From Spirochaetaceae bacterium (GTDB taxonomy: Bacteria > Spirochaetota > Spirochaetia > DSM-27196 > SLAA01), in the NCBI GenBank assembly GCA_007695055.1, contig REEM01000143.1, positions 3,812 through 67,811 of the forward strand: 64,000 nt of DNA. Direction: 5' to 3'. Position numbers and translations under genes: made by a program. This document shows positions 30,000 to 41,958 of the stretch, one piece after another. Numbering within the stretch: the first letter of the stretch is position 1; each line of letters opens with the position of its first letter. The notes beneath the pieces were generated by a model that made no database searches, was not told where the DNA came from, and was given only the letters and a program-made list of their open reading frames with translations.

Positions 30000-31091
30000 A
30001 TGCCGTCCCATGTAGCACATCTGATTTTTGCTGAGCAGGTACGCGACGCCCTCCCCAGCCACCTCCAACCAAGAATGACCGCTGCGAGCTATCCCTTTTT
30101 CGTCTTGGGCGCTCAGGGGCCAGACCTCTTTTACCACAATCGCCGTCGCAAACCCTCGGGTCTCGAGTATGGGGCTCGCCTCCATAGGTATGGCTACGGT
30201 ACGGCTGCTGCTGCCATGTTGAGCTATCTCCTTGAACACAGCCGCCGGAACGTGAATCTTGAAGCCTACCTGTTTGGTTTCATCACCCATGCCTTCCTTG
30301 ATCGAGCGGTTCACCCATACATTAACTACTTCGCGGGCTGGTTTGATCCAAAACGTGAAGAGACCCTTCGGTGGCGGGGAGCCCATGCGTATTTCGAGCG
30401 CCTGGTCGATGTAGTCATTCTGCGTCGATATAGGAACTGCGGCTTCGAGGCCTACGACTTTTTCTCCCGAGCTGACGCTGGCGAGGAAGCTCCCCGGCAG
30501 CTCGTAGAGCTGCTTGCCTACGGACTCAAACAGGCCATACCTCGCGCCCCCAAGGATGAACACCTCCACACACGCATAGAGCACGCCTACCTCGATGCCC
30601 GTGGGTTTTATCAGTACACCAACCGAACACTCGAGCAGTATCTAGCCGAGGAGCTTCGGCACCCAACGAACATGACTCCTGCCGAGCTGCGACGGTCGGC
30701 CTTGCTGCACCCCGCGCATCCACCGACCGAGCTGGACCCGGCAAACGAGTCACGTCGGCCGTGGTTGCATCCGTGTTCCTCCGAGCCTTGGTACAGTTCC
30801 ACGCTTTGGGAACTTATGGATCAGGCACAACACAACGCACTGCCAGCTGCCACATGCATGGCGAGCGCATTTGTTGAACAGAACGCAACGCCTGCTCGCC
30901 GGGGACACAGCGCGACAAGCGCCGAAGCAGCCTTATCTGAACTCATTGGAGACATGAATCTCTCGGATGGACGCCCCGGATCTCGGCCGTGTCCAAAACG
31001 CTTCAGTGAACCTCTGCCCCTCATGGAGCAGTTAGAGAGCTACATTAACGCCGTGACCAACGATCTGATATCGAGTCGGCAAGCAGATTAA
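30000..31091 (+). CDS. Putative zinc-dependent phospholipase C-like metallohydrolase
   Basis: Track ORF 29961..31091. ATG at 30000 (MPSHVAHLIFAEQV...LGAQGPDLFYH...HAFLDRAVHPYINY). His-rich motifs resemble PF00882-like bacterial proteins. The assignment is tentative. Confidence 0.45.
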   Translation: MPSHVAHLIFAEQVRDALPSHLQPRMTAASYPFFVLGAQGPDLFYHNRRRKPSGLEYGARLHRYGYGTAAAAMLSYLLEHSRRNVNLEAYLFGFITHAFLDRAVHPYINYFAGWFDPKREETLRWRGAHAYFERLVDVVILRRYRNCGFEAYDFFSRADAGEEAPRQLVELLAYGLKQAIPRAPKDEHLHTRIEHAYLDARGFYQYTNRTLEQYLAEELRHPTNMTPAELRRSALLHPAHPPTELDPANESRRPWLHPCSSEPWYSSTLWELMDQAQHNALPAATCMASAFVEQNATPARRGHSATSAEAALSELIGDMNLSDGRPGSRPCPKRFSEPLPLMEQLESYINAVTNDLISSRQAD

Positions 31092-31857
31092 AGCCTAGCA
31101 CTGTTGCCGCAATAGCTAAGCCAGGAAGGATTGAGAGCCACGGAGCCACCGCCATATAGTTACGGGCGTCACGCAGAATAAGCCCCCAACTTGGCTGTGG
31201 CGGCTGAATCCCTAACCCCAGATACGAGAGTGAACTCTCAATCACAATTGCAAGCGCAAACAACACCGCCGTTTGCACCACCAACCGCGGGCCCAGGGCG
31301 GGCAACACATGCAGAACAAGGGTGCGCCGCCAGGGGCTCCCAAGTGCACGGCTACTCTGGAAGTACTCGGTCTCACGGAGGGCACGTGCCTCGGCCCGCA
31401 CCAGCCGTAGATAGACAGGTGTAAAGACTATGGCTATGGAAAGGGTCACCGAAAACATACCATACGAGAACACCGCCACCACCGCCACCGCTAGCAGAAC
31501 CGTTGGAAATGACAGCACCGCATCTGCCGGGAGCAGCAGCAACTCCTCTCGCAGACGACTCCCAAACGCCGCAATCAAACCAAGCACGGTACCAAGCAGC
31601 ATGGCCGGAAGCACCGCAAATGCGGCTACCCCCAAGCTTACCCGAGCACCGAACAGCATGCGTGAAAATAGGTCCCGCCCCAGGTCATCGGTACCAAAGG
31701 GGCTACCGGGGGTACCGGGTGTCTCAAATCGTGCATCAAGCCGTTGGGCAGTAGGTGAAGCGGTCGACAGAAACGGAGCCCCGAGCGCGGCCGTAAAGGC
31801 CATGCCCACCAGAAGGAGGCCTACAAGATCACGAACACGCGCCAAGGGTCGCTCCAC
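31045..31857 (-). CDS. ABC transporter permease (peptide/nickel type, DppC/OppC-like)
   Basis: 270 aa, multi-TM. It has the EAA-like loop region SRALGSPWRRTLVLHVLPALGP. Confidence 0.85.
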   Translation of the reverse strand: MERPLARVRDLVGLLLVGMAFTAALGAPFLSTASPTAQRLDARFETPGTPGSPFGTDDLGRDLFSRMLFGARVSLGVAAFAVLPAMLLGTVLGLIAAFGSRLREELLLLPADAVLSFPTVLLAVAVVAVFSYGMFSVTLSIAIVFTPVYLRLVRAEARALRETEYFQSSRALGSPWRRTLVLHVLPALGPRLVVQTAVLFALAIVIESSLSYLGLGIQPPQPSWGLILRDARNYMAVAPWLSILPGLAIAATVLGFNLLADSISDRWSRR

Positions 31858-31862
31858 CTAGA

Positions 31863-33380
31863 CTACTCCGACTCCAGCTCAACCCAACGGAAATCGTAGG
31901 TATCGAGCTTGGCATCCATGTGAAAACCCTGAACCCGATCCGCAATACCAATATGCCGGTAGGAACTCCCGATAAACACCCCAGGTACGTCACGAGCCAG
32001 GATCTCTTGCACCTCAGCGTAGATCTTTGCTCTCTCTTCCGGCTCGGCAACTCGCCGCCCTGCGGCCGTAAGAGCGCGCACCTCCGGGCTATGGTACGAG
32101 ACGTAGTTACCTTCCTCCACGTACTCCGAGAACCGGGCATCTGGGTCAAGTTTCCCGGTGTGTCCAATGACGGTGAGGTCGAAGTTGCCTCCGAAGAATA
32201 CATCGGACAACCAGGTGCTCCACTCTACCAGCTGCAGTTCAACCTCTATTCCGACATCGCCAAGCATCTCCTGATACATCTCGGCAGCCTTCACATGCGG
32301 CTCATAGTTCTGTGGGGCTGCAATGATCGGGGTGAACTCACCGGTATATCCGGCCTCTTCTAACAGTTCTCTCGCGCGCGCGGGATCATAGGGATAAGGT
32401 TCCTCAGGGCCAGCATAAAAGGGATCTCCGTAGTCCATAAAGGTAGTAATGGGGTGGCCGCCAGCGTAGGCAATGTCCAGCACCGCCTGTTTATTAATAG
32501 CATGGGTAGCGGCGCGGCGCACCAAGGGATCGTTAAAGGGCTCGCGCGAGTTGTTTATTGACAGCACCATTACCAAGGAGCTCAACTCGGTGCGTACATC
32601 GACCCCTGGTGCTGCCTGTATGCGACTCAGATTCGTCTCACCAACCATGTCAATTACGTCGAGTCGTCCGGTGAGTAGCCCCTGCTCCTGTACCGGCATC
32701 TCGGTAATAATGTTGAAACGCAGTTCCTCAAGAGCTGGGCGTCCGGGCATCCAGTAGTTGTCGTTGCGGGTCATGCTAATGTGACTGTCCGAGACCCATT
32801 CAATAAACTCAAACGGCCCGGTGCCAATTGGACGAGTGGCAAAGTTGTGACCATCTGCAATGTGATGTGCAGGGAGTATGGCGCCCCAACCGGATGCAAG
32901 TGAAGCTGCAAAAGGGGCATAGGGCTCGCGCAGGGTTATCACCACCGTTAATTCATCCGGTGCTGAGATATCTTGAATAACGCGGAACTCGTCGGCCTTG
33001 GGTGATGCAAAAACCGGATCCAGCAGTCGTTCCAGACTGGCAACGACATCTGCCGAGCTAAATGCGCTGCCGTCATGGAACACCACACCTTCTCGCAGGA
33101 AAAACTGCCACTGCAGTCCATCTTCGGAAACCTCATAGCTCTCGGCCAGTGCCGGAACGATAATGCCTTCGCGATTTGGTTCAAGCAGGGTGTCGTATAG
33201 ACTACGCGTCACCTGAAAGGTGAGAGTGCCGGAAGTTGCGTGAGGGTCAAGGGTGTTCGGATTGCCCGAGACAGCAACCCGCAGCCCAGGGTCTGGTGTC
33301 CCCGCCGTGCATGCAGATAACACAGCCGCGACAATTGAGAGAAAAACTAAGGCCCGGAGGCCGTTGATATACTTTCTCAT
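31863..33380 (-). CDS. ABC transporter substrate-binding lipoprotein, family 5 (peptide/nickel)
   Basis: Track ORF 31863..33515. ATG 33380 follows AAGGAG. MRKYINGLRALVFLSIVAAVLSACTAG carries a lipobox. The body is SBP_bac_5-like. Confidence 0.85.
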   Translation of the reverse strand: MRKYINGLRALVFLSIVAAVLSACTAGTPDPGLRVAVSGNPNTLDPHATSGTLTFQVTRSLYDTLLEPNREGIIVPALAESYEVSEDGLQWQFFLREGVVFHDGSAFSSADVVASLERLLDPVFASPKADEFRVIQDISAPDELTVVITLREPYAPFAASLASGWGAILPAHHIADGHNFATRPIGTGPFEFIEWVSDSHISMTRNDNYWMPGRPALEELRFNIITEMPVQEQGLLTGRLDVIDMVGETNLSRIQAAPGVDVRTELSSLVMVLSINNSREPFNDPLVRRAATHAINKQAVLDIAYAGGHPITTFMDYGDPFYAGPEEPYPYDPARARELLEEAGYTGEFTPIIAAPQNYEPHVKAAEMYQEMLGDVGIEVELQLVEWSTWLSDVFFGGNFDLTVIGHTGKLDPDARFSEYVEEGNYVSYHSPEVRALTAAGRRVAEPEERAKIYAEVQEILARDVPGVFIGSSYRHIGIADRVQGFHMDAKLDTYDFRWVELESE

Positions 33381-33417
33381 GATGAACTCCTTATGCTGTG
33401 CACCGGAGCCGAGGAGT

Positions 33418-34200
33418 TCATAGTCCAAGCAACTCGCGACTGTAGGGGCGTTCCGGTCCCGCCAGAAAACGCTCGGCCTCGGCGCATTCAATGAGTCGGC
33501 CTCGGCGCAGTACACCGATTCGGTCGCTCATATACCCCACCACATCAAGATCGTGGGATATCACTACATAGGTTAACCCATATTGGCGCCGAAGGTCGAG
33601 AAGCAGGTTGAGTATCCCGGCCTGCACCGATAGATCCAGACTCGCGGTTGGCTCGTCTAAAATGAGAACTCTCGGTGAGACGGCCAAGGCCCGTGCAAGC
33701 ACAATTCGCTGCTTCTGTCCTCCGGAGAAAGCAGCTGGGCGACGACTCATGACATCTTTGTCGAGTCCGACCGAGGCCAACAAGCGTACTGCCTCCGCTT
33801 GTCGTTGGGAACGTGGAACTCCGGCCGAGGCGAGTGCCTCAGACATGCTGGTTTCTATGCTGAGATACGGGTTGAGCGAGCTATGCGGATTCTGAAACAC
33901 AATCTGGCACAGGCGTCGTCTCAGACGTTTTTCGCGGCGTGTCGTCCTCCCCAGAATAGCTCGTCCATTCAGCAGAACCTTGCCCTGACTGGGCCGGATC
34001 AGACCAACCAGAATTCGTGCCAGGGTTGTCTTGCCACTCCCCGACTCACCGACCAGGCCCAGCGTCTCACCGTCATAGACCTGCAGGTTTATTGAGTTGA
34101 GGGCTGGCACCGCACGCCTTGATCGCACCAAGCCGGACGAATAGTAATGAGTCACTCCTTGGACTTCAAGAACTGTCGCTGCTTCCATGGCATGGTTCAT
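33418..34200 (-). CDS. ABC transporter ATP-binding protein (DppF/OppF-like)
   Basis: Track ORF 33418..34356. ATG 34200 overlaps the upstream stop (ATGA). Walker A GESGSGKTT, signature FSGGQKQR, Walker B LILDEPT. Confidence 0.9.
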   Translation of the reverse strand: MNHAMEAATVLEVQGVTHYYSSGLVRSRRAVPALNSINLQVYDGETLGLVGESGSGKTTLARILVGLIRPSQGKVLLNGRAILGRTTRREKRLRRRLCQIVFQNPHSSLNPYLSIETSMSEALASAGVPRSQRQAEAVRLLASVGLDKDVMSRRPAAFSGGQKQRIVLARALAVSPRVLILDEPTASLDLSVQAGILNLLLDLRRQYGLTYVVISHDLDVVGYMSDRIGVLRRGRLIECAEAERFLAGPERPYSRELLGL

Positions 34201-35235: not shown

Positions 35236-36159
35236 CTATCCCCGTAACCGCGGGTCGGCCAATCCGTACAGAAGATCGGCGACAAAGTTGGCGAGTGAAA
35301 ACGCAACCGCACTGAGCATGACAGCCGCCTGAATAACCGGATAGTCACGCCTGAAGATTGAGGAAAGGAGAAGTCTCCCTATTCCCGGGAGCGAGAATAC
35401 ATTCTCAATAATCACGACCCCACCAATCAGATACCCAAGTTGGATTGCCGCAATGGTAATCACCGGCAACAAGGCGTTAGGCGCGGCATGGAGAAGCACC
35501 ACACGTGCTGGTGAAAGACCCCGCACTCGTGCCGCCGTTACGTACTCGCGCTGTAACTCAGCACCCAGCGAACTACGAATATAGCGAGCAAGCACCGCGC
35601 CACGGCCCAGAGCCAAGGCGACGGTTGGTAATACTAAGGAAATCCAGCCCTCATATCCAAAGAGTGGAAAGGCGCTCACCTGTACAGATAAAGCCAGCAA
35701 CAAAAGAATTCCAAGCCAGAACTCCGGGACGGCCAAAAGGAGATGTGAAGGCCCAGCAAGAAGAAGATCCAGTGAGCCCCCCTGCTTCATACCGGCAGGA
35801 ATTCCCAAGGCGGCTCCAATCAACAGCGACAGAAGAAAGGCCGAGGCGGAAAGTCGTAGGGTTAAAGGCAGTCGCTCTCGGATAAGGTCCAGCGCAGGCT
35901 CGCCGGAGAAGAAGGATGTGCCGAAGTCAAGTCTGAGAGTTGAGAGAATCCAGGCTCCGTATTGGAACAGAAGAGGCCGGTCGGTTCCGAGCCGTACTCG
36001 AATGAGTTCCACATCCGCTGCCCGGGCATCTGGCCCGGCAATAACGGTAGCGGGGTCACCAGGAATTATCCGCACCAGAACAAAGACAAAGCTAACTATG
36101 AGAAAAACGGTTACAAACAACCGTAGTGTCTTTGAGAGGATGTATCTCCAGGACAGCAT
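35236..36159 (-). CDS. ABC transporter permease (DppB/OppB-like)
   Basis: 307 aa. MLSWRYILSKTLRLFVTVFLIVSFVFVLVRIIPGDP is a typical N-terminus. Confidence 0.88.
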   Translation of the reverse strand: MLSWRYILSKTLRLFVTVFLIVSFVFVLVRIIPGDPATVIAGPDARAADVELIRVRLGTDRPLLFQYGAWILSTLRLDFGTSFFSGEPALDLIRERLPLTLRLSASAFLLSLLIGAALGIPAGMKQGGSLDLLLAGPSHLLLAVPEFWLGILLLLALSVQVSAFPLFGYEGWISLVLPTVALALGRGAVLARYIRSSLGAELQREYVTAARVRGLSPARVVLLHAAPNALLPVITIAAIQLGYLIGGVVIIENVFSLPGIGRLLLSSIFRRDYPVIQAAVMLSAVAFSLANFVADLLYGLADPRLRG

Positions 36160-36186: not shown

Positions 36187-36624
36187 CTACTTCTTCAACG
36201 CCATAAGAATTCGTTCAAGAACCTTTTTTCTGTCAAGCGGCTTGACGATATAGTTCTTTGCTCCCTTCATGAGAGAGTCCTTCACAAGATCGTTCTTGCC
36301 AAGAGCGCTGATCATGACTACAACGGCTTCTTTGTCGAATTCAACGATCTTTTCGAGTGCTGTGACTCCATCCATTTTCGGCATGGTTATGTCCATAGTG
36401 ACGAGATCAAGCTTTGGATGCAGCTCTTTGTACTTCTCTACTGCTTCCTCGCCGTTTGAAGCGGTAGCTACAACGTCAAATCCGGCAGAAGTGAGAACTT
36501 GTCCAAGCTGTTTGGCAATGAACATTGAGTCGTCTACAATCATTACGCGATACGGAGTACCGTCGGATTTCCATCCTTCCGGCTCTTTCTCGTTCATGCT
36601 GGGAAAGTCTACTTTACTCTTCAT
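36187..36624 (-). CDS. cheY: Chemotaxis-type single-domain response regulator
   Basis: 145 aa. MIVDDS...DLVTMDITMPKMDGVTALEKIVEFD...MISALG...GAKNYIVKPLDRKKVLERI, very CheY-like. Confidence 0.75.
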   Translation of the reverse strand: MKSKVDFPSMNEKEPEGWKSDGTPYRVMIVDDSMFIAKQLGQVLTSAGFDVVATASNGEEAVEKYKELHPKLDLVTMDITMPKMDGVTALEKIVEFDKEAVVVMISALGKNDLVKDSLMKGAKNYIVKPLDRKKVLERILMALKK

Positions 36625-36833
36625 TGTTTAGACCGCCTCCACTCTTCCTTATAACGAAAACGTCCGAGACTTGCAAGTCTATACCAAATCTTGCACTACC
36701 GGTTCTTTTTTTTCCGTTTTGCCGCTATGGGGCGACAGGAGCGGCGTAAGACGGTATAGTGGAGTCACACGATGCAACAAGACTTGCGGCCATGTATCCC
36801 TATGCAGCGCCGTAACCGCAAAGGAGTTACAAG

Positions 36834-38651
36834 GTGCAAACTAATCACAGTTTCCATATACCAGTCTTAGGAATAGGATTTTCGGTTGATACGCCCGTCA
36901 AGGTGGCAAAGTTCGGAATTACCTCGGTTATCTCGCTTGTTGACGACGAACTGGCCGAGGAGCTACGGGCTTACTACCTCAAGGAGCGTGGAGAGACTTA
37001 CGAACCCATTGACAAGTCCTACGACAATCCGCGCGCAGCGCGCTTCACGGCTTACCTTAACCTGGTTAACACCATGGTTCAGGAGAAGACCGAACAACTG
37101 CGACAAGCGGAGTTTGAACCTGGTTCCGAGATTACACGGTACTTTGAGTACCTACCGAGCGACTCACCTCTAGGTCAGCTCTACCAAGACATGATAGCCG
37201 CCAGCACCGCCGAGGAACGTGACAAGCTCCAGGCCGAGCTGCGTGATGCGGTACGGCCGGGTGAGGTTGAGACCAACATTATGGTCAAGGTCGACAACGA
37301 TCGCTACCGCGACGGGGAACAACTACCGCCGGAGTACGCAGACGCAATGTCGGCCTTGCAAGGCTTTGCGGAAAGCGAGCTTGAGTCGGGTGTGGTTTTA
37401 TCGGCTGGCTTCAACCGCCGCCTTGCAAAACATATTGAGAACTTCGCCGACTTTCATGCCGACGCAACAGGAAAATTCCGCAAGAAGATCATTCTCAAGG
37501 TGAGTGATTTCCGCTCAGCACAGACACAAGCCAAAATGTTTGCCCGGAGTGGCCTCTGGATATCGGAGTTCCGCATTGAGTCAGGCCTCAACTGCGGTGG
37601 CCATACCTTTGCCACCGACGGAATCCTGCTTGGGCCAATCCTTGAAGATTTCAAAACACGCCGTGAAGAACTTCTGGAGTCTACCTACGAGGTTTACCGC
37701 ACCGCGGTGAGCAAACGCACCGGTTCGGAACCGGAACGCCCAAGTTTCCGTGTAACGGTTCAGGGTGGAGTCGGCACCGCCCTTGAGCATAGTTTTCTCA
37801 TGGATAACTATGAGATAGACGCCGTTGGTTGGGGATCCCCGTTCCTGCTGGTGCCGGAAGCAGTAAATGTCGACGACGATACGCTCAACAAGTTAGCTCT
37901 GGCAGGGGCCGAGGATATCGTTTCAAGCGGTGCGTCTCCTCTGGGCGTCCGATTCAGCAATCTCATGAACTCAGCATCGGAGTTGTACAAGCGCCGTCTT
38001 TCTCGTGACGGCACGCCCGGTAGCGCCTGCCCTAAGGGTTATCTCAAATTCAATACCGAGTTCACCGATCGCGCAATCTGTGTAGCCTCCAACGCATACC
38101 AAAAGCGGAAAATTGCCGAGTTGGACGAGCTTGGCCTTGAGAGCTCCGAGAGAGAACGGCGCTACAATGAGATTGTGGAACGAGCATGCATCTGCCGTGA
38201 CCTATCCGGATCGGTAGAAATTCTGTACGGCACAGGCCGCTACGGCAAGGACGCGACGACTGCAGTCTGTCCGGGACCCAACCTTGCATTCTTCCCGCGT
38301 GCTGCGAAACTCCAGGAAATGATTGACCATATCTACGGTCGGCTCGACTTACTCAATGGTATTGATCGTCCTCATATCTTTATAAACGAGTTGAAGCTGT
38401 ATGTGGCACACCTTGCCGAGGAGCTTGCCGAGGCAATGCGATCTGGCAGTGAGGCTGGCACAGAGGCCTTCAGAAGCTATCGTGACAATCTTTTGACCGG
38501 CATTGGGTATTATCTGGGGCTCATGAGTACTCTTGGCGAGGAGTATCGTCGTTGGAAAGACCGAGTTCCGAGCGAGCTACTCAAGCTCAAGGAACAAATT
38601 GAAACGATCATGGCCGTGTTGCCGGAAACTGCCGAGGGAAACAAAGGATAG
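36834..38651 (+). CDS. Conserved hypothetical protein (605 aa), function unknown
   Basis: GTG start 8 nt after AAGGAG. N-terminus FHIPVLGIGFSVDTPVKVAKFGITSVISLVDD, central ESGLNCGGHTF, and Cys-containing C-terminal half. I cannot name the family from memory. Confidence 0.6.
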   Translation: MQTNHSFHIPVLGIGFSVDTPVKVAKFGITSVISLVDDELAEELRAYYLKERGETYEPIDKSYDNPRAARFTAYLNLVNTMVQEKTEQLRQAEFEPGSEITRYFEYLPSDSPLGQLYQDMIAASTAEERDKLQAELRDAVRPGEVETNIMVKVDNDRYRDGEQLPPEYADAMSALQGFAESELESGVVLSAGFNRRLAKHIENFADFHADATGKFRKKIILKVSDFRSAQTQAKMFARSGLWISEFRIESGLNCGGHTFATDGILLGPILEDFKTRREELLESTYEVYRTAVSKRTGSEPERPSFRVTVQGGVGTALEHSFLMDNYEIDAVGWGSPFLLVPEAVNVDDDTLNKLALAGAEDIVSSGASPLGVRFSNLMNSASELYKRRLSRDGTPGSACPKGYLKFNTEFTDRAICVASNAYQKRKIAELDELGLESSERERRYNEIVERACICRDLSGSVEILYGTGRYGKDATTAVCPGPNLAFFPRAAKLQEMIDHIYGRLDLLNGIDRPHIFINELKLYVAHLAEELAEAMRSGSEAGTEAFRSYRDNLLTGIGYYLGLMSTLGEEYRRWKDRVPSELLKLKEQIETIMAVLPETAEGNKG

Positions 38652-38664
38652 TGTAGGCTCGAAA

Positions 38665-38836
38665 AGAGAAAAAGCCGACGGATATCCGTCGGCTTTTTTG
38701 TTCGCGCGGCCTGTGAAGTCCAAACCGGTTGATCTAAGTTTTTACCTCAATTTTTTACCTATCTTTTTACTTGTAACTTTTTTACTTTGCTTCTTAACCT
38801 TTGTTTGAAATTGTTTTTCTTTTTTGCATCTTAACA
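38665..38836 (-). ncRNA. Candidate sigma-54-dependent small RNA (about 170 nt, AT-rich, four GTAAAAA repeats)
   Basis: It is bounded by the sigma-54 promoter (38862-38847) and the terminator (38694-38673). No convincing ORF. Minus-strand sequence: ...AAGTAAAAAAGTTACAAGTAAAAAGATAGGTAAAAAATTGAGGTAAAAACTT... The ends are predicted, not measured. Confidence 0.4.
38671..38699. terminator. Bidirectional rho-independent terminator
   Basis: AGCCGACGG-ATAT-CCGTCGGCT (38673-38694) is flanked by an A-run on the left and TTTTTT on the right. It therefore reads as hairpin plus U-tract on both strands. Confidence 0.8.
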
Positions 38837-38846
38837 ACACCTCTAT

Positions 38847-38862
38847 TGCAATCCACGTGCCA
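38847..38862 (-). promoter_or_regulatory. Sigma-54 (RpoN) -24/-12 promoter
   Basis: The minus strand reads TGGCACGTGGATTGCA, an exact match to TGGCACG-N4-TTGCW. GG is at 38861-38860 and GC at 38849-38848. Confidence 0.7.
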
Positions 38863-38938
38863 AGCTATGAAGGAATATATAATTGTATATTCTATAAGGT
38901 TTTAGAGAACGGCGGCATGAGACAAGCCCAAAGGCTGT

Positions 38939-39043
38939 GCCTATGCAGCTTGCATGGAGCTTTCACTGTTTTTGAGGTATGTATTTATGCAGTAATGATT
39001 TAGACCCTATGCAGCTTGAGGGGCCTATGCGGAACGCATAGGC
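38939..39043. promoter_or_regulatory. Candidate enhancer (UAS) sites for the adjacent sigma-54 activator
   Basis: CCTATGCagcttGCATGG (38940-38957), CCTATGC (39006-39012), and the perfect palindrome GCCTATGCG-GAA-CGCATAGGC (39023-39043). They lie about 80-180 bp upstream of the sigma-54 promoter on the minus strand. Confidence 0.4.
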
Positions 39044-39085: not shown

Positions 39086-40504
39086 TCAGCTTTTCGCTCG
39101 CCCGCTAAGCCGTCGACTCAGCGTACTTTGCGAGACTCCAAGCAGCCGGGCGGCTATTGATTGGTTTCCGTCCGCTTTTGACAGTGCCTCCTGGAAAAGA
39201 TACTCCTCTACCTCGGAGAGCTTAGGAAACTCACCACGATAACTGATTCGTGCGGGTTCACCACCCTGAGCGACCTCGGCAGCCGCCTCTGCAAAGGCGC
39301 CGTCTCTAGATCGTTCTATGTGCTCCCGAAAGGCACCGAGGGAAAGCACGCCACTCTCATGCCGCGACAGTGCGTCGTATACCATGGACTGGAGCTCACG
39401 TACATTCCCAGGAAAGGAGTAGACAGCAAGCAGCGTATAGAGCTGATCAGGTACGGTCGGTACCCGCTTATTGAGAGCGGCTGCTGTCTCGGCAAGGAAG
39501 TGATCAAACAACACCGGAACATCCTCGGGTCGACGTCGTAGCGGTGGTAGTTCAACATGGTGGGCAATGAGTCGATAGTAGAGGTCACGACGGAAGCTCC
39601 CGTCTGACTGCTTGAGATAGAGATCTGCATTTGTCGCGGCGACAATCCGAGTTTGCGCCTTCTGCGGATGGTCCGAACCCAGCTGATAGTACTCCCCTTC
39701 CTGGAGCAGGCGTAGGAGCTTGACCTGAGGCCCGAGCTCAAGGTCACCTATCTCGTCAAGAAAGAGCGTACCTCCTGTAGCTCGCTCGACAAGGCCTGGA
39801 CGGTCGCGGTCAGCGCCGGTGAAGGCTCCCCGCTTGTGGCCAAACAATGTGTCGGAGAACATGGTATCGTCGAGTCCCGAAACGTTGACGCTGACGAATT
39901 CGCCTTTCCTGCCGCTAACCTGATGCACCGCACGAGCAGCAAGCTCTTTGCCGGTGCCACTCTCGCCACTTATGAGTACAGCCTTAGGGCTGGCTGCAAC
40001 CGCTTCAATATAGGCCAGGGTCTTCCGCAGGCCTGGGCTGACGGTTATAATCTCCGAAAAGGCGGCGGGGTTCTTGAGCTCCACCTGAGCACCCGAGCCA
40101 GCAAGAATGCGCACCTCACTCTGAAGCGCCCGAATCTGCAATGCATGCCGCACCGAGTTCACCAGCCGATTCTCGTCAACCGGCTTTACCATAAAGTCAA
40201 AGGCCCCGACCTTCATGCACTCCACCGCGGTCTCAACCTTATCGACACCGGTTAGGATGATCACAGATATTTCGGGATGTTCGGCAGAAATGCGACGCAG
40301 TAGCTCCTGCCCCGAAATATGGGGCATATTTAGATCAAGCAGGATGACCGAAATGCTCTCGCGCTTGAGTATATCCATAACCTCGCGGCTATCGTTACAG
40401 CACAATGGACGTGGGAAGCCGTACTCCTCAAGCATTGCTTGGTATAACTCAGACGCGAGTTCCTCATCATCGACAACTAGAACGTGCGACTCTTGTTGCT
40501 CCAT
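39086..40504 (-). CDS. Sigma-54-dependent response regulator (NtrC family: REC + AAA+ + Fis-type HTH)
   Basis: Track ORF 39086..40588. ATG at 40504 (MEQQESHVLVVDDEE). The receiver has ILLDLNMP. Walker A GESGTGKE, GAFTGA loop (KRGAFTGADR), and C-terminal HTH IAARLLGVSQSTLSRRL. No sensor kinase is adjacent. Confidence 0.9.
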   Translation of the reverse strand: MEQQESHVLVVDDEELASELYQAMLEEYGFPRPLCCNDSREVMDILKRESISVILLDLNMPHISGQELLRRISAEHPEISVIILTGVDKVETAVECMKVGAFDFMVKPVDENRLVNSVRHALQIRALQSEVRILAGSGAQVELKNPAAFSEIITVSPGLRKTLAYIEAVAASPKAVLISGESGTGKELAARAVHQVSGRKGEFVSVNVSGLDDTMFSDTLFGHKRGAFTGADRDRPGLVERATGGTLFLDEIGDLELGPQVKLLRLLQEGEYYQLGSDHPQKAQTRIVAATNADLYLKQSDGSFRRDLYYRLIAHHVELPPLRRRPEDVPVLFDHFLAETAAALNKRVPTVPDQLYTLLAVYSFPGNVRELQSMVYDALSRHESGVLSLGAFREHIERSRDGAFAEAAAEVAQGGEPARISYRGEFPKLSEVEEYLFQEALSKADGNQSIAARLLGVSQSTLSRRLSGRAKS

Positions 40505-40587: not shown

Positions 40588-41958
40588 ATGCCGGACAAAC
40601 AGATTGAGCGCATACAGATTCTGAATTCTAACCCGGAAGGCCAGGGCCGCTACATTCTGTACTGGATGCAGCAATCCTTACGCTCGCGCCAAAACCATGC
40701 CTTGGAGTATGCCATAAGCTGTGCGAATCGTCGGGGGCTACCGCTTGTTGTGTGTTTTGGACTCACCACCAGCTTCCCAGGGGCAAGGCTCCGCCACTAC
40801 CACTTCTTGTTTGAGGCCCTTGTGGAACTGGAAATGGAACTTGCCTCGCGTGGCATTCGGCTTGTTGTGGTGGAAGGCTCTCCTCCCGACGTGGCGATAG
40901 AACTTGGCAAGGAGGCACAACTCGTTGTCACCGACCGCGGATATCTGCGCATTCAACGCGAATGGCGCACCAAGGTCGCAGCTGGTCTCACCTGCCCCTT
41001 GCACCAGGTTGAAGGGGACGTGGTGGTGCCGGTGGAGAGCGCAAGCACAAAGGAGGAGTATAACGCGGCAAATCTCCGCAGGAAAATAACTCCCCTGCTT
41101 GAACGTTTTCTGGCCCCGGTACCGGAACTCAAACTTGAGACCCCCTCCCGCGAGCTTAAGCTGCAGCTGGGTGCTTTTGCGCACTCGCTGCATAGGCCTG
41201 CGGAGCTTGTTGGTCGGGAGAATACCCTGGGCATTCAACCCGAACCCGGCCCGGTTACTCAGTATGCGGGCGGAACCTCAGCCGCTGAACGCCTCTTTCG
41301 CGAATTTCTGGACACAAAACTTGAACGCTACGACGAAGACCGCAGTGACCCCTCACTGAACTGTGTCTCGCGTATGAGTGCTTATCTGCACTTTGGGATG
41401 ATCTCTCCGGTCTATCTTGCCCGTGAGGCACGTGCCTCCGGACTTGCTGGCACAGGCGCCTACGTTGAGGAGTTGATAGTACGCCGCGAGCTCTCAATGA
41501 ACTACGCGTTCTACAACCCCAATTACGACCGCTACGATGGGCTTCCGACCTGGGCAAGAACCACACTTGAGGAGCATCGTGGAGACACTCGCCGCGCCAT
41601 TTACACAGAGAGTCAGCTCCGAGACGCCGAGACAGGGGATCCCTACTGGAACGCTGCACAACGGGAGCTGCTGGAGACCGGCGCCATGCATGGCTACATG
41701 CGGATGTACTGGGGAAAAAAGATTCTGGAGTGGAGGCCGGATCCGCAGGAGTCGTTTGAGATTGCGCTGCGGCTCAACGACACCTTTCAACTCGACGGCC
41801 GGGATCCTAACGGGTACACCGGTGTAGCCTGGTGTTTTGGAAAACATGACCGCCCTTGGCCGGAGCGCGATGTCTTCGGCAAGGTGCGGTACATGAATGC
41901 TGCTGGACTGGAGCGCAAGTTTAAGATCAAGGACTACGCTGCACGCTGGTCCGGCTAG
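40588..41958 (+). CDS. phr: Deoxyribodipyrimidine photolyase, class II
   Basis: Track ORF 40561..41958. ATG 40588 follows AAGGA. YILYWMQQSLRSRQNHALEYAI and the C-terminal MHGYMRMYWGKKILEW...GVAWCFGKHDRPW are class II CPD photolyase signatures. Confidence 0.88.
   Translation: MPDKQIERIQILNSNPEGQGRYILYWMQQSLRSRQNHALEYAISCANRRGLPLVVCFGLTTSFPGARLRHYHFLFEALVELEMELASRGIRLVVVEGSPPDVAIELGKEAQLVVTDRGYLRIQREWRTKVAAGLTCPLHQVEGDVVVPVESASTKEEYNAANLRRKITPLLERFLAPVPELKLETPSRELKLQLGAFAHSLHRPAELVGRENTLGIQPEPGPVTQYAGGTSAAERLFREFLDTKLERYDEDRSDPSLNCVSRMSAYLHFGMISPVYLAREARASGLAGTGAYVEELIVRRELSMNYAFYNPNYDRYDGLPTWARTTLEEHRGDTRRAIYTESQLRDAETGDPYWNAAQRELLETGAMHGYMRMYWGKKILEWRPDPQESFEIALRLNDTFQLDGRDPNGYTGVAWCFGKHDRPWPERDVFGKVRYMNAAGLERKFKIKDYAARWSG

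Follow-up and report, generated by a model that had tools for sequence, protein, structure and literature searches.

What is encoded in the short AT-rich interval between an NtrC-family activator gene and a convergent 605-aa open reading frame (ORF) on contig REEM01000143.1 of a Spirochaetaceae bacterium? The window, i.e. the whole stretch of DNA analysed, comprises 64,000 nucleotides, and the interval in question covers positions 38663 to 38862, for which an initial annotation had proposed an activator-dependent small RNA (sRNA) with spaced repeats. A sigma-54 promoter, an array of 9-nt repeats and an intrinsic terminator were found on the minus strand of this interval, and the whole arrangement recurs beside orthologous activator genes in other spirochaete genomes. 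To judge from sequence comparison, this is very probably a conserved sigma-54-dependent non-coding RNA gene in which the repeats are the functional units.

Promoter, repeat array and conserved arrangement

By pattern search, the exact sequence pattern TGGCAC-N5-TTGCW occurs once in the 64-kb window, on the minus strand at 38862-38847 (TGGCACGTGGATTGCA), and two further matches each contain one mismatch. In the exact match, the GG (-24) occupies 38861-38860 and the GC (-12) occupies 38849-38848; this element has the geometry of a sigma-54 (RpoN) promoter, and it lies 223 nt from the stop codon (39086) of the activator gene on the same strand. The G+C content is 33.5% at 38700-38899, compared with about 55% in the flanks. 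At the other end of the interval, a terminator scan gave a bidirectional intrinsic terminator with U-tracts on either side (AAAAAGCCGACGGATATCCGTCGGCTTTTT, 38669-38698, both strands). Read on the minus strand, it is a 13-bp hairpin (38698-38669) with seven G-C pairs, followed by CTCTTTT; since T-runs are present on both strands, the convergent 605-aa gene (stop at 38651) would be ended by the same hairpin. These measurements agreed with the initial annotation, which had described an exact promoter at this position, a distance of about 225 bp to the activator stop, an AT-rich stretch in a GC-rich window and a hairpin with U-tract common to the convergent gene. From promoter and terminator geometry, a primary transcript of about 174 nt is predicted (38663-38836, minus), with its start (38836) placed 12 nt downstream of the -12 GC and its 3' end placed in the U-tract past the hairpin. 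The predicted fold (minimum free energy -36.4 kcal/mol, z = -2.9) leaves the 5' two-thirds of the RNA largely open and contains one small hairpin and the terminator.

The predicted transcript carries an array of five units in a 12/15/12/13-nt register (38739-38799, minus), namely one degenerate and four canonical copies of the 9-mer A-D-G-U-A-A-R-A-A. The canonical copies are located at 38787-38779, 38772-38764, 38760-38752 and 38747-38739, with GTAAAAA starting at 38785, 38770, 38758 and 38745, and the degenerate fifth copy (GGTTAAGAA, 38799-38791) stands in register 12 nt upstream of the first canonical one. All four of the spaced (A/G)GTAAAAA(A) copies noticed at first were recovered. On both strands of the window there are five matches to ADGTAARAA, four of them inside 49 nt (38739-38787); the expectation for the window is 1.47, and five matches were reached in one of 100 shuffles. 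GTAARAA was found at only two positions elsewhere in the window. As a separate observation, the run GCAAAAAAGAAAAACAA at 38810-38826 (minus), 5' of the array, has the form (AAN)4-5, which is of the classical Hfq distal-face type, and is kept in locus L001 (SLAA01000242), where the activator is 95% identical to that of the window.

Related loci were collected by a protein-anchored scan with one genome per species, which gave 80 loci. A search for clusters of at least three motif-like heptamers gave exactly one in the window and exactly one in each of 19 loci; each of these stands downstream of the activator gene, on the strand of that gene. The remaining sequence of the window and of the 80 loci (about 0.65 Mb, searched on both strands) contained no further cluster. 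All 20 arrays first found have a -24/-12 element 30-165 nt upstream, and five additional loci (L020, L021, L023, L028, L034) have the promoter together with two or three copies. The -24/-12 element is present in 25 of 25 loci, and where the exact pattern exists in an orthologous locus it occurs nowhere else there. Among the 32 spirochaete loci whose activators are at least 54% identical to that of the window (L001-L031 and L034), 24 carry the element (54-95% identity among the carriers), six are without it and two are not judgeable, as the contig ends at the activator (L016, L024). The lineage of the window belongs to the Spirochaetales and is known from metagenome-assembled genomes (MAGs) of soda-lake and hypersaline sediments. 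The conserved order runs from the activator stop through enhancer palindromes, the sigma-54 promoter and 3-8 motif copies to, mostly, a terminator-like hairpin. The leader ahead of the first copy is variable (+3 to +139 nt), in most loci a G+C-rich hairpin is seen with a T-run behind it, and the RNA in the relatives would be roughly 90-250 nt long. The initial annotation had recommended a search for the repeat beside orthologous activators and had named a promoter not conserved in relatives as a reason to abandon the proposal; the search returned the whole arrangement in 24 other spirochaete genomes, with the promoter element in every carrier. This conservation is taken as the decisive evidence that the arrangement goes beyond chance.

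A logo was compiled from 99 units of the 25 loci. Position -2 is A in 94 of the 99 units and position 0 is G in 86, position -1 is A, G or U and never C, position +4 is A or G (82:17), and positions +5 and +6 are A; the U-A-A at +1 to +3 was imposed by the search, and the arrays show no alternative to it. The motif is followed by three spacer bases, which are unconstrained and enriched in C. The spacing of units is exactly 12 nt in 55 of 76 cases and 11 or 13 nt in ten, and the copy number per array is 3 to 8. The array unit can be written as the repeatable monomer (AUGUAAAAACGA)n, and the element as the promoter-anchored signature TGGCACNNNNNTTGC-N{20,50}-GTAARAA-N5-GTAARAA. Near-identical neighbouring units in two loci (L025, L027) point to recent tandem duplication. 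The AGG or GAGG ahead of some copies is part of the motif, in which position -1 is A, G or U, and is not a ribosome-binding site. 

Differences were also counted by category in alignments of seven groups of close relatives. The share of differing positions was 5.7% in the motif 9-mers, 7.8% in the promoter 16-mer, 21.9% in the other parts of the transcript, 38.9% in the spacers inside the array and 44% in the 10 nt between promoter and start (Fisher p = 6e-20 for motif versus spacer and 6e-17 for motif versus other transcript). The difference between motif and spacer suggests that the functional unit is the 9-mer itself and not the surrounding sequence. The repeats, first described as possible multi-site regulatory elements, are the best-conserved part of the transcript, and their definition could be sharpened to a 9-mer, A-D-G-U-A-A-R-A-A, in a 12-nt register.

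The gene upstream of the promoter (39086-40504, minus) encodes an NtrC-family response regulator, i.e. a bacterial enhancer-binding protein (bEBP), of 472 aa counted from Met29 of a 500-aa ORF. The long ORF (TTG at 40588) runs into the start of a divergent photolyase ORF (40561); the Met29 start (40504) removes this overlap and agrees with the gene call on the Logan metagenome contig L201, where exactly the same 472-aa protein was called. Pfam assigned Response_reg (7.6e-28), Sigma54_activat (1.4e-55) and HTH_8 (1.7e-8), and GAFTGA and GESGTGKE are seen in the translation. The protein stayed below every NCBIfam equivalog cut-off, the top one being AtoC with 340 bits against a cut-off of 714. 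With its receiver, its AAA+ domain containing GAFTGA and its HTH_8 domain, this bEBP is presumed to be the cognate activator, and its activity would be controlled by phosphorylation. No histidine kinase gene is adjacent to the activator in any locus, and rpoN did not turn up in the window.

Palindromes of the form TATGC-N5-GCATA lie upstream of the promoter in 25 of 25 loci (positions counted from the T of TGGCAC; the background of matches at 8 or more of the 10 specified bases is 0.12 per 300 nt). In the window, a distal enhancer palindrome (TATGCGTTCCGCATA, 39026-39040), 178 nt upstream, matches 10 of 10 bases, and a proximal one (CATGCAAGCTGCATA, 38942-38956), 94 nt upstream, matches 9 of 10. 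At 39008-39022 only the right arm GCATA is present, at the place where several relatives have a second full palindrome (at about -160, 17 nt from the distal one, in L004, L005, L020, L021, L023, L025 and L027). The distal palindrome is found at -176 to -182 in 18 of the 25 loci and otherwise at -187/-189 or -126 to -133; the proximal one is found at -93 to -95 in 19 and otherwise at -102 (four loci), -82 or -110. The -178 and -94 sites are about 84 bp apart, equal to eight helical turns, and 11 loci have an extra palindrome 15-23 bp from another. Enhancer sites about 80-200 bp upstream, as characterize a bEBP-dependent promoter, were present in all 25 loci, and their co-location with the adjacent activator gene suggests that its product is the protein that binds them. 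Two extra copies of the half-enhancer GCTGCATAGG were also seen on the minus strand, one near the distal palindrome (39008-39022) and the other (36798-36810) 2 kb away, between the start of the 605-aa gene and the next minus-strand gene, which encodes a receiver-only protein (REC).

Among the spirochaete loci without the element, L031 (Salinispira, closed chromosome OZ271918; 5422-5487) and L017 (3684-3806) keep the order activator, REC gene, ABC transporter, and the activator gene is followed after only about 65-120 nt by the next gene, in a gap that contains neither the sRNA nor a sigma-54 promoter. The two loci provide a natural presence/absence contrast for finding the partner of the RNA. 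Three more distant spirochaete loci, with activators of about 50% identity (L042, 5606-5720; L051, 4087-4190; L065, 5597-5700), share the synteny and have a sigma-54 promoter (TGGCAT/TGGCAC...TTGC). Their short terminated RNA spans about 60-85 nt and contains no more than about two degenerate A-D-G-U-A copies; it may represent the array in an ancestral or a decayed state. In two subgroups of the carriers a conserved 5' module, GCCACC(G/ACA)AACGCA, precedes the array (L008, L010, L014, L015 at about +3 to +20; L020, L021, L023 at about +1 to +22). It was not seen in the subgroup of the window and may be a second functional element.

Beyond the spirochaetes (Deltaproteobacteria, Nitrospirae and others, with activators 48-54% identical), a sigma-54 promoter is found downstream of the activator too. 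An sRNA array in these phyla was considered and rejected: the promoters mostly drive protein genes (receiver proteins, lipoproteins, a SatP-like transporter), and no array is present. In L035, L040, L057, L061, L077 and other loci with activators of about 50% identity, the promoter lies 170-430 nt downstream and appears to drive receiver-domain or small secreted proteins, with leaders of about 50 to about 200 nt. Furthermore, metagenomes were scanned with the unanchored pattern GTAAAAA-N4-6-GTAAAAA-N4-6-GTAAAAA, which returned at least 120 stretches. The matches listed were mostly AT-rich contigs with unrelated or simple tandem repeats, and neither a strict sigma-54 promoter in the 300 nt upstream nor an activator homologue was present in any of those listed. 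Since this A-rich pattern was unanchored, the taxonomic range given here is a lower bound.

Possible function of the repeats

Short sites that are reiterated, accessible and selectively conserved and that vary in copy number are the signature of a decoy RNA. All of these properties were found or, for accessibility, predicted here, and a protein is favoured as the partner. The variable copy number (3-8) and the duplicated units would fit avidity or titration sites, as expected of such an RNA. The mean predicted unpaired probability was 0.63 for the motifs and 0.40 for the remaining transcript. Self-complementary spacers (e.g. CG, TCGA, CTAG) place the motif in a loop in some arrays (L018, L025, L027); hairpin presentation as a general feature was rejected, being not conserved and absent, for example, from the window.

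In the proposed mechanism, the phosphorylated orphan NtrC-type regulator would bind two or three TATGC-N5-GCATA sites, with their centres about 110 and 195 bp ahead of the transcription start, and would open the sigma-54 promoter. Sigma-54 RNA polymerase would then make the sRNA, ended by the intrinsic terminator, and the 3-8 tandem, mostly unpaired A-D-G-U-A-A-R-A-A copies, mainly 12 nt apart, would be its working parts. The sRNA would titrate a sequence-specific RNA-binding protein off its mRNA targets, and signalling through the activator would relieve or redirect the post-transcriptional control exerted by that protein. The logic would be that by which CbrB acts through CrcZ against Hfq/Crc, and CsrB/RsmZ against CsrA. 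Expression of the RNA and a protein as the reader of the motif are both suggested by the sequence evidence. That the RNA acts as a protein decoy is given about an even chance. The full statement, which describes a conserved activator-dependent non-coding RNA gene with the repeats as working parts and a role as decoy for an RNA-binding protein, is considered rather probable.

Several points weigh against this statement. The genomes are uncultured MAGs or metagenome contigs, and both ends of the transcript are predicted positions. The Salinispira relatives with the same gene order and no RNA indicate that it is dispensable in some lineages. The accessibility of the motifs is weak evidence, since A-rich RNA is intrinsically unpaired, and a 12-nt register, being a multiple of three, is equally expected of a peptide repeat. 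Pfam searches of the neighbouring genes and of 20 more ORFs of the window gave housekeeping and transport genes only, with no candidate gene for an RNA-binding protein near the locus, and no exact match of the motif to the site of a known protein was found. If the motif is read in the phase (D-G-U)(A-A-R)(A-A-N), its two variable positions, +4 and +7, coincide with the N slots of an A-R-N code of the Hfq type, and the 12-nt register keeps the triplets in phase. Even so, the fit to the (A-R-N)n or AAnAAnAA code appears to be a partial one, with the invariant A(-2) and the G-U left unexplained. Since the motif fully fits neither the GGA of CsrA nor the Hfq code, the partner could have a new specificity.

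The main rival to the protein decoy, and an unlikely one, is a base-pairing sRNA with reiterated seeds, in which ADGUAARAA would pair with UUYUUACHU-like sites in mRNAs or in an sRNA, acting as an RNA sponge. The conserved units are short (9 nt), predicted to be unpaired and seed-like, the promoter, the terminator and the non-coding nature fit equally, and reiterated seeds have a precedent in other sRNAs, namely the UCCC motifs of LhrC, RsaE and RNAIII. However, the copy number of 3-8 and the tight 12-nt register suggest avidity or binding to an oligomer over redundant seeds, and a purely A/U-rich seed of 7-9 nt would pair weakly. The degenerate positions -1 (A, G or U, never C) and +4 (A or G) would also be odd for one complementary target. 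In the DNA available, which is a small sample, the complement is not enriched; no convincing motif or complement was found near start codons, with about eight isolated matches in 0.5 Mb of related loci and two in the window (either strand), all of them away from start codons.

A more far-reaching form of the protein-decoy reading can be put forward tentatively, as a possibility that we would not yet call probable. The array may be the decoy arm of a previously unrecognised global post-transcriptional system in free-living spirochaetes, in which an RNA-binding protein of new specificity would repress mRNAs and the activator-induced decoy would lift this repression. If true, a circuit of the Csr/Crc kind would have evolved independently for a third time, and the conserved neighbouring REC/ABC genes might link it to the uptake of peptides or nutrients.

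Transcription unit and coding potential

A cis-acting leader or attenuator, with the sigma-54 promoter serving the REC/ABC operon and the repeats bound in a TRAP- or HutP-like manner, or else a mere untranslated region (UTR) or terminator of the neighbours, would be another explanation, and a very improbable one. It takes its appeal from the next gene on the same strand, which in most relatives encodes a REC-only protein followed by an Opp/Nik-like ABC transporter, and from the motif repeats ahead of a terminator, a hallmark of TRAP- and HutP-type attenuators. However, the gene that follows the element in the window, L001-L003 and L201 runs convergently and uses the same terminator, and the element is intact in all of these. 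In other loci a sigma-70-like promoter (CTTGAA-N17-TATAAC), conserved in many relatives, stands between the sRNA terminator and the REC gene. The array and the terminator stem do not overlap in a way that gives alternative structures, and Salinispira has the operon without the element. The separate promoter of the REC operon and the intact element beside a convergent gene indicate that the element is a discrete transcription unit. The initial annotation had allowed that the region might prove to be only the 3' UTR or terminator of neighbouring genes, a reading against which the same observations speak. With its own promoter, its own terminator, no conserved ORF and conservation in relatives, the element has the predicted features of a stand-alone sRNA gene; some read-through into the REC operon may occur in collinear loci.

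The synteny of activator, sRNA, REC, permease and ATPases (Opp/Nik-like) recurs in many loci. In the window, the CheY-like REC protein assigned by Pfam (36187-36624, minus) heads an ABC-transporter operon with a family-5 binding protein and is not part of the RNA. It has a sigma-70-like promoter of its own (TTGCAA at 36676-36671, N17, TATAAG at 36653-36648, minus) and is followed by a permease (35236-36159), two ATPases, the family-5 binding protein (31863-33515) and, at the end of the operon, a second permease (31045-31857). A conserved N-terminal extension of about 25 aa (MKSKVDFPSMNEKEPEG...) was observed in the REC protein. The 605-aa ORF (36834-38651, plus), which separates the sRNA from the REC gene in convergent orientation and ends at the shared terminator, had no Pfam, NCBIfam or PDB sequence match and is present only in the window, L001-L003 and L201.

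Since the 12-nt register is a multiple of three and keeps the repeats in one frame, (S/G/C)-K-K/N-x, coding was tested explicitly, by translation in three frames and by the coverage of the copies with ORFs in the 25 loci, and was rejected. An mRNA for a small lysine-rich peptide, in which the repeats would be these units, is hardly credible. In the window the peptide would be encoded by a 32-codon GTG ORF (38840-38742, minus). The dominant spacing is divisible by three, the commonest variant, GTAAGAA, is a synonymous change (AAA to AAG) in that frame, and in several loci the array can be read through in one open frame. However, an ORF with an in-transcript start over all copies exists in only two of the 25 loci, both with GTG or TTG, and in 15 of the 25 there is no ORF over even one copy. 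The window ORF begins upstream of the predicted transcription start and, in the closest relative (L001), has TGA at its third codon. Spacings of 10, 11, 13 and 14 nt shift the frame inside the arrays of several loci. Read in the 32-codon frame, the invariant A(-2) would occupy the third place of a codon whose first and second positions vary freely, which is the opposite of a coding pattern. No gene was called over the element on the Logan contig L201. The initial annotation had described a non-coding transcript without any ATG ORF preceded by an in-transcript Shine-Dalgarno sequence, and this description holds: an 11-codon ATG ORF (start at 38829, minus), 7 nt from the predicted start, is without such a sequence, and an ORF was conserved in none of the comparisons. 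A conserved ORF, a start with a ribosome-binding site and substitutions favouring third positions, by which a small-protein gene would be recognized, were not found in the 25 loci. To judge by these comparisons, the element is non-coding.

Scarcely any credence can be given to an element that acts at the DNA level (a protein-binding iteron or an array of A-tracts) or to an AT-rich spacer that arose by chance, in either case with no role for an RNA. In favour of such a reading, A5 tracts are regularly spaced in an AT-rich intergenic region, and the 7-mer pattern turns up in many AT-rich metagenome contigs, where it is due to chance or to simple tandem repeats. Against it, the array always lies in a single orientation between a conserved sigma-54 promoter and a terminator, and its variable distance from the promoter (+3 to +139) indicates that it does not belong to the promoter. 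A spacing of 12 bp does not keep step with the helical repeat of DNA, and the conservation is strand-specific and motif-specific.

Comparison with known regulatory RNAs

The window region was compared with the 4227 families of Rfam at permissive E-values, and 15 related loci were compared with them at gathering score. For the element, no family was found at gathering score in the window or the 15 loci, the one hit being an unrelated tRNA. The sub-threshold matches to STnc430, STnc240, CsrC and Leu_leader, on both strands, were rejected, being carried by the terminator hairpin and A-richness; for CsrC, the score was 23.5 bits compared with a gathering score of 61, and the alignment covered essentially the terminator only. 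CrcZ/CrcY stayed without a match, both in the window region (E <= 10) and in the 15 loci (gathering score), and no Rfam match to the Qrr1/GlmY/Pxr class was obtained. A literature search returned no description of this motif or RNA, or of a spirochaete sigma-54 sponge RNA. To our knowledge, no Csr-type sponge RNA has been recognized in Spirochaetota, where regulatory RNAs are poorly charted.

The initial annotation had compared the layout with Qrr next to LuxO and GlmY next to GlrR. The position of a bEBP gene beside its sigma-54-dependent sRNA is indeed shared with Qrr1 (LuxO), GlmY (GlrK/GlrR) and Pxr (Nla19, Myxococcus), and to that extent the comparison stands. However, Qrr and Pxr are structured base-pairing sRNAs and GlmY is a protein-binding mimic with a defined fold, and none of them has a motif array; the closest analogue is CbrB/CrcZ instead.

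It has been reported that the promoter of crcZ, situated between the cbrB end and crcZ itself, depends on RpoN and CbrB, and that CrcZ sequesters Hfq/Crc by means of several A-rich AAnAAnAA motifs (PMC5113210). The system considered here resembles CrcZ (with CrcY/CrcX; CbrA/CbrB in Pseudomonas and Azotobacter) in having the sRNA gene directly after an NtrC-family gene on the same strand, a sigma-54 promoter that would need that activator, A-rich motifs that are predicted to be single-stranded and, as proposed here, a decoy role. It differs in having no sequence or structure homology to CrcZ and in its ADGUAARAA copies, which form a tight 12-nt tandem, whereas the AAnAAnAA motifs of CrcZ are dispersed. 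It also belongs to Spirochaetota, with an activator that is not a CbrB equivalog and a TATGC-N5-GCATA enhancer, and its predicted RNA is shorter than CrcZ, which has a length of about 400 nt.

Similarly, CsrB/CsrC and RsmX/Y/Z are non-coding RNAs with many copies of a short motif, the number of which varies between species, and they titrate the global translational regulator CsrA/RsmA. The core A-N-G-U-A found here is one base apart from the A-N-G-G-A core of CsrA. However, the units have no GGA, U being present at +1 in every unit (a position fixed by the search) with no GGA variant visible, and they are not consistently placed in hairpin loops. The Csr/Rsm RNAs are moreover expressed from sigma-70 promoters under BarA/UvrY or GacS/GacA, and not from sigma-54 promoters. 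By analogy, the RNA would work in a CrcZ- or CsrB-like manner while being a member of neither family, and can be classed as a putative bEBP/sigma-54-dependent motif-array sRNA.

Sponges such as CsrB/RsmZ and CrcZ stand at the top of global regulatory hierarchies, and few pairs of protein and motif are known, almost all of them in Proteobacteria. In the spirochaete locus the whole module is legible from sequence, from the activator and its enhancer sites to the sigma-54 promoter and the reiterated 9-nt site, and the motif, being sharply defined and almost absent from the remaining genome, can serve as bait for the partner and as a signature for the regulon. If the partner proves to be Hfq, the principle of CrcZ would extend far beyond Pseudomonadaceae. 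If its specificity is new, it would be an addition to the very short list of global regulators controlled by RNA decoys, and the layout of a bEBP gene followed by a sigma-54 sponge RNA, as known from CbrB/CrcZ, would have evolved more than once.

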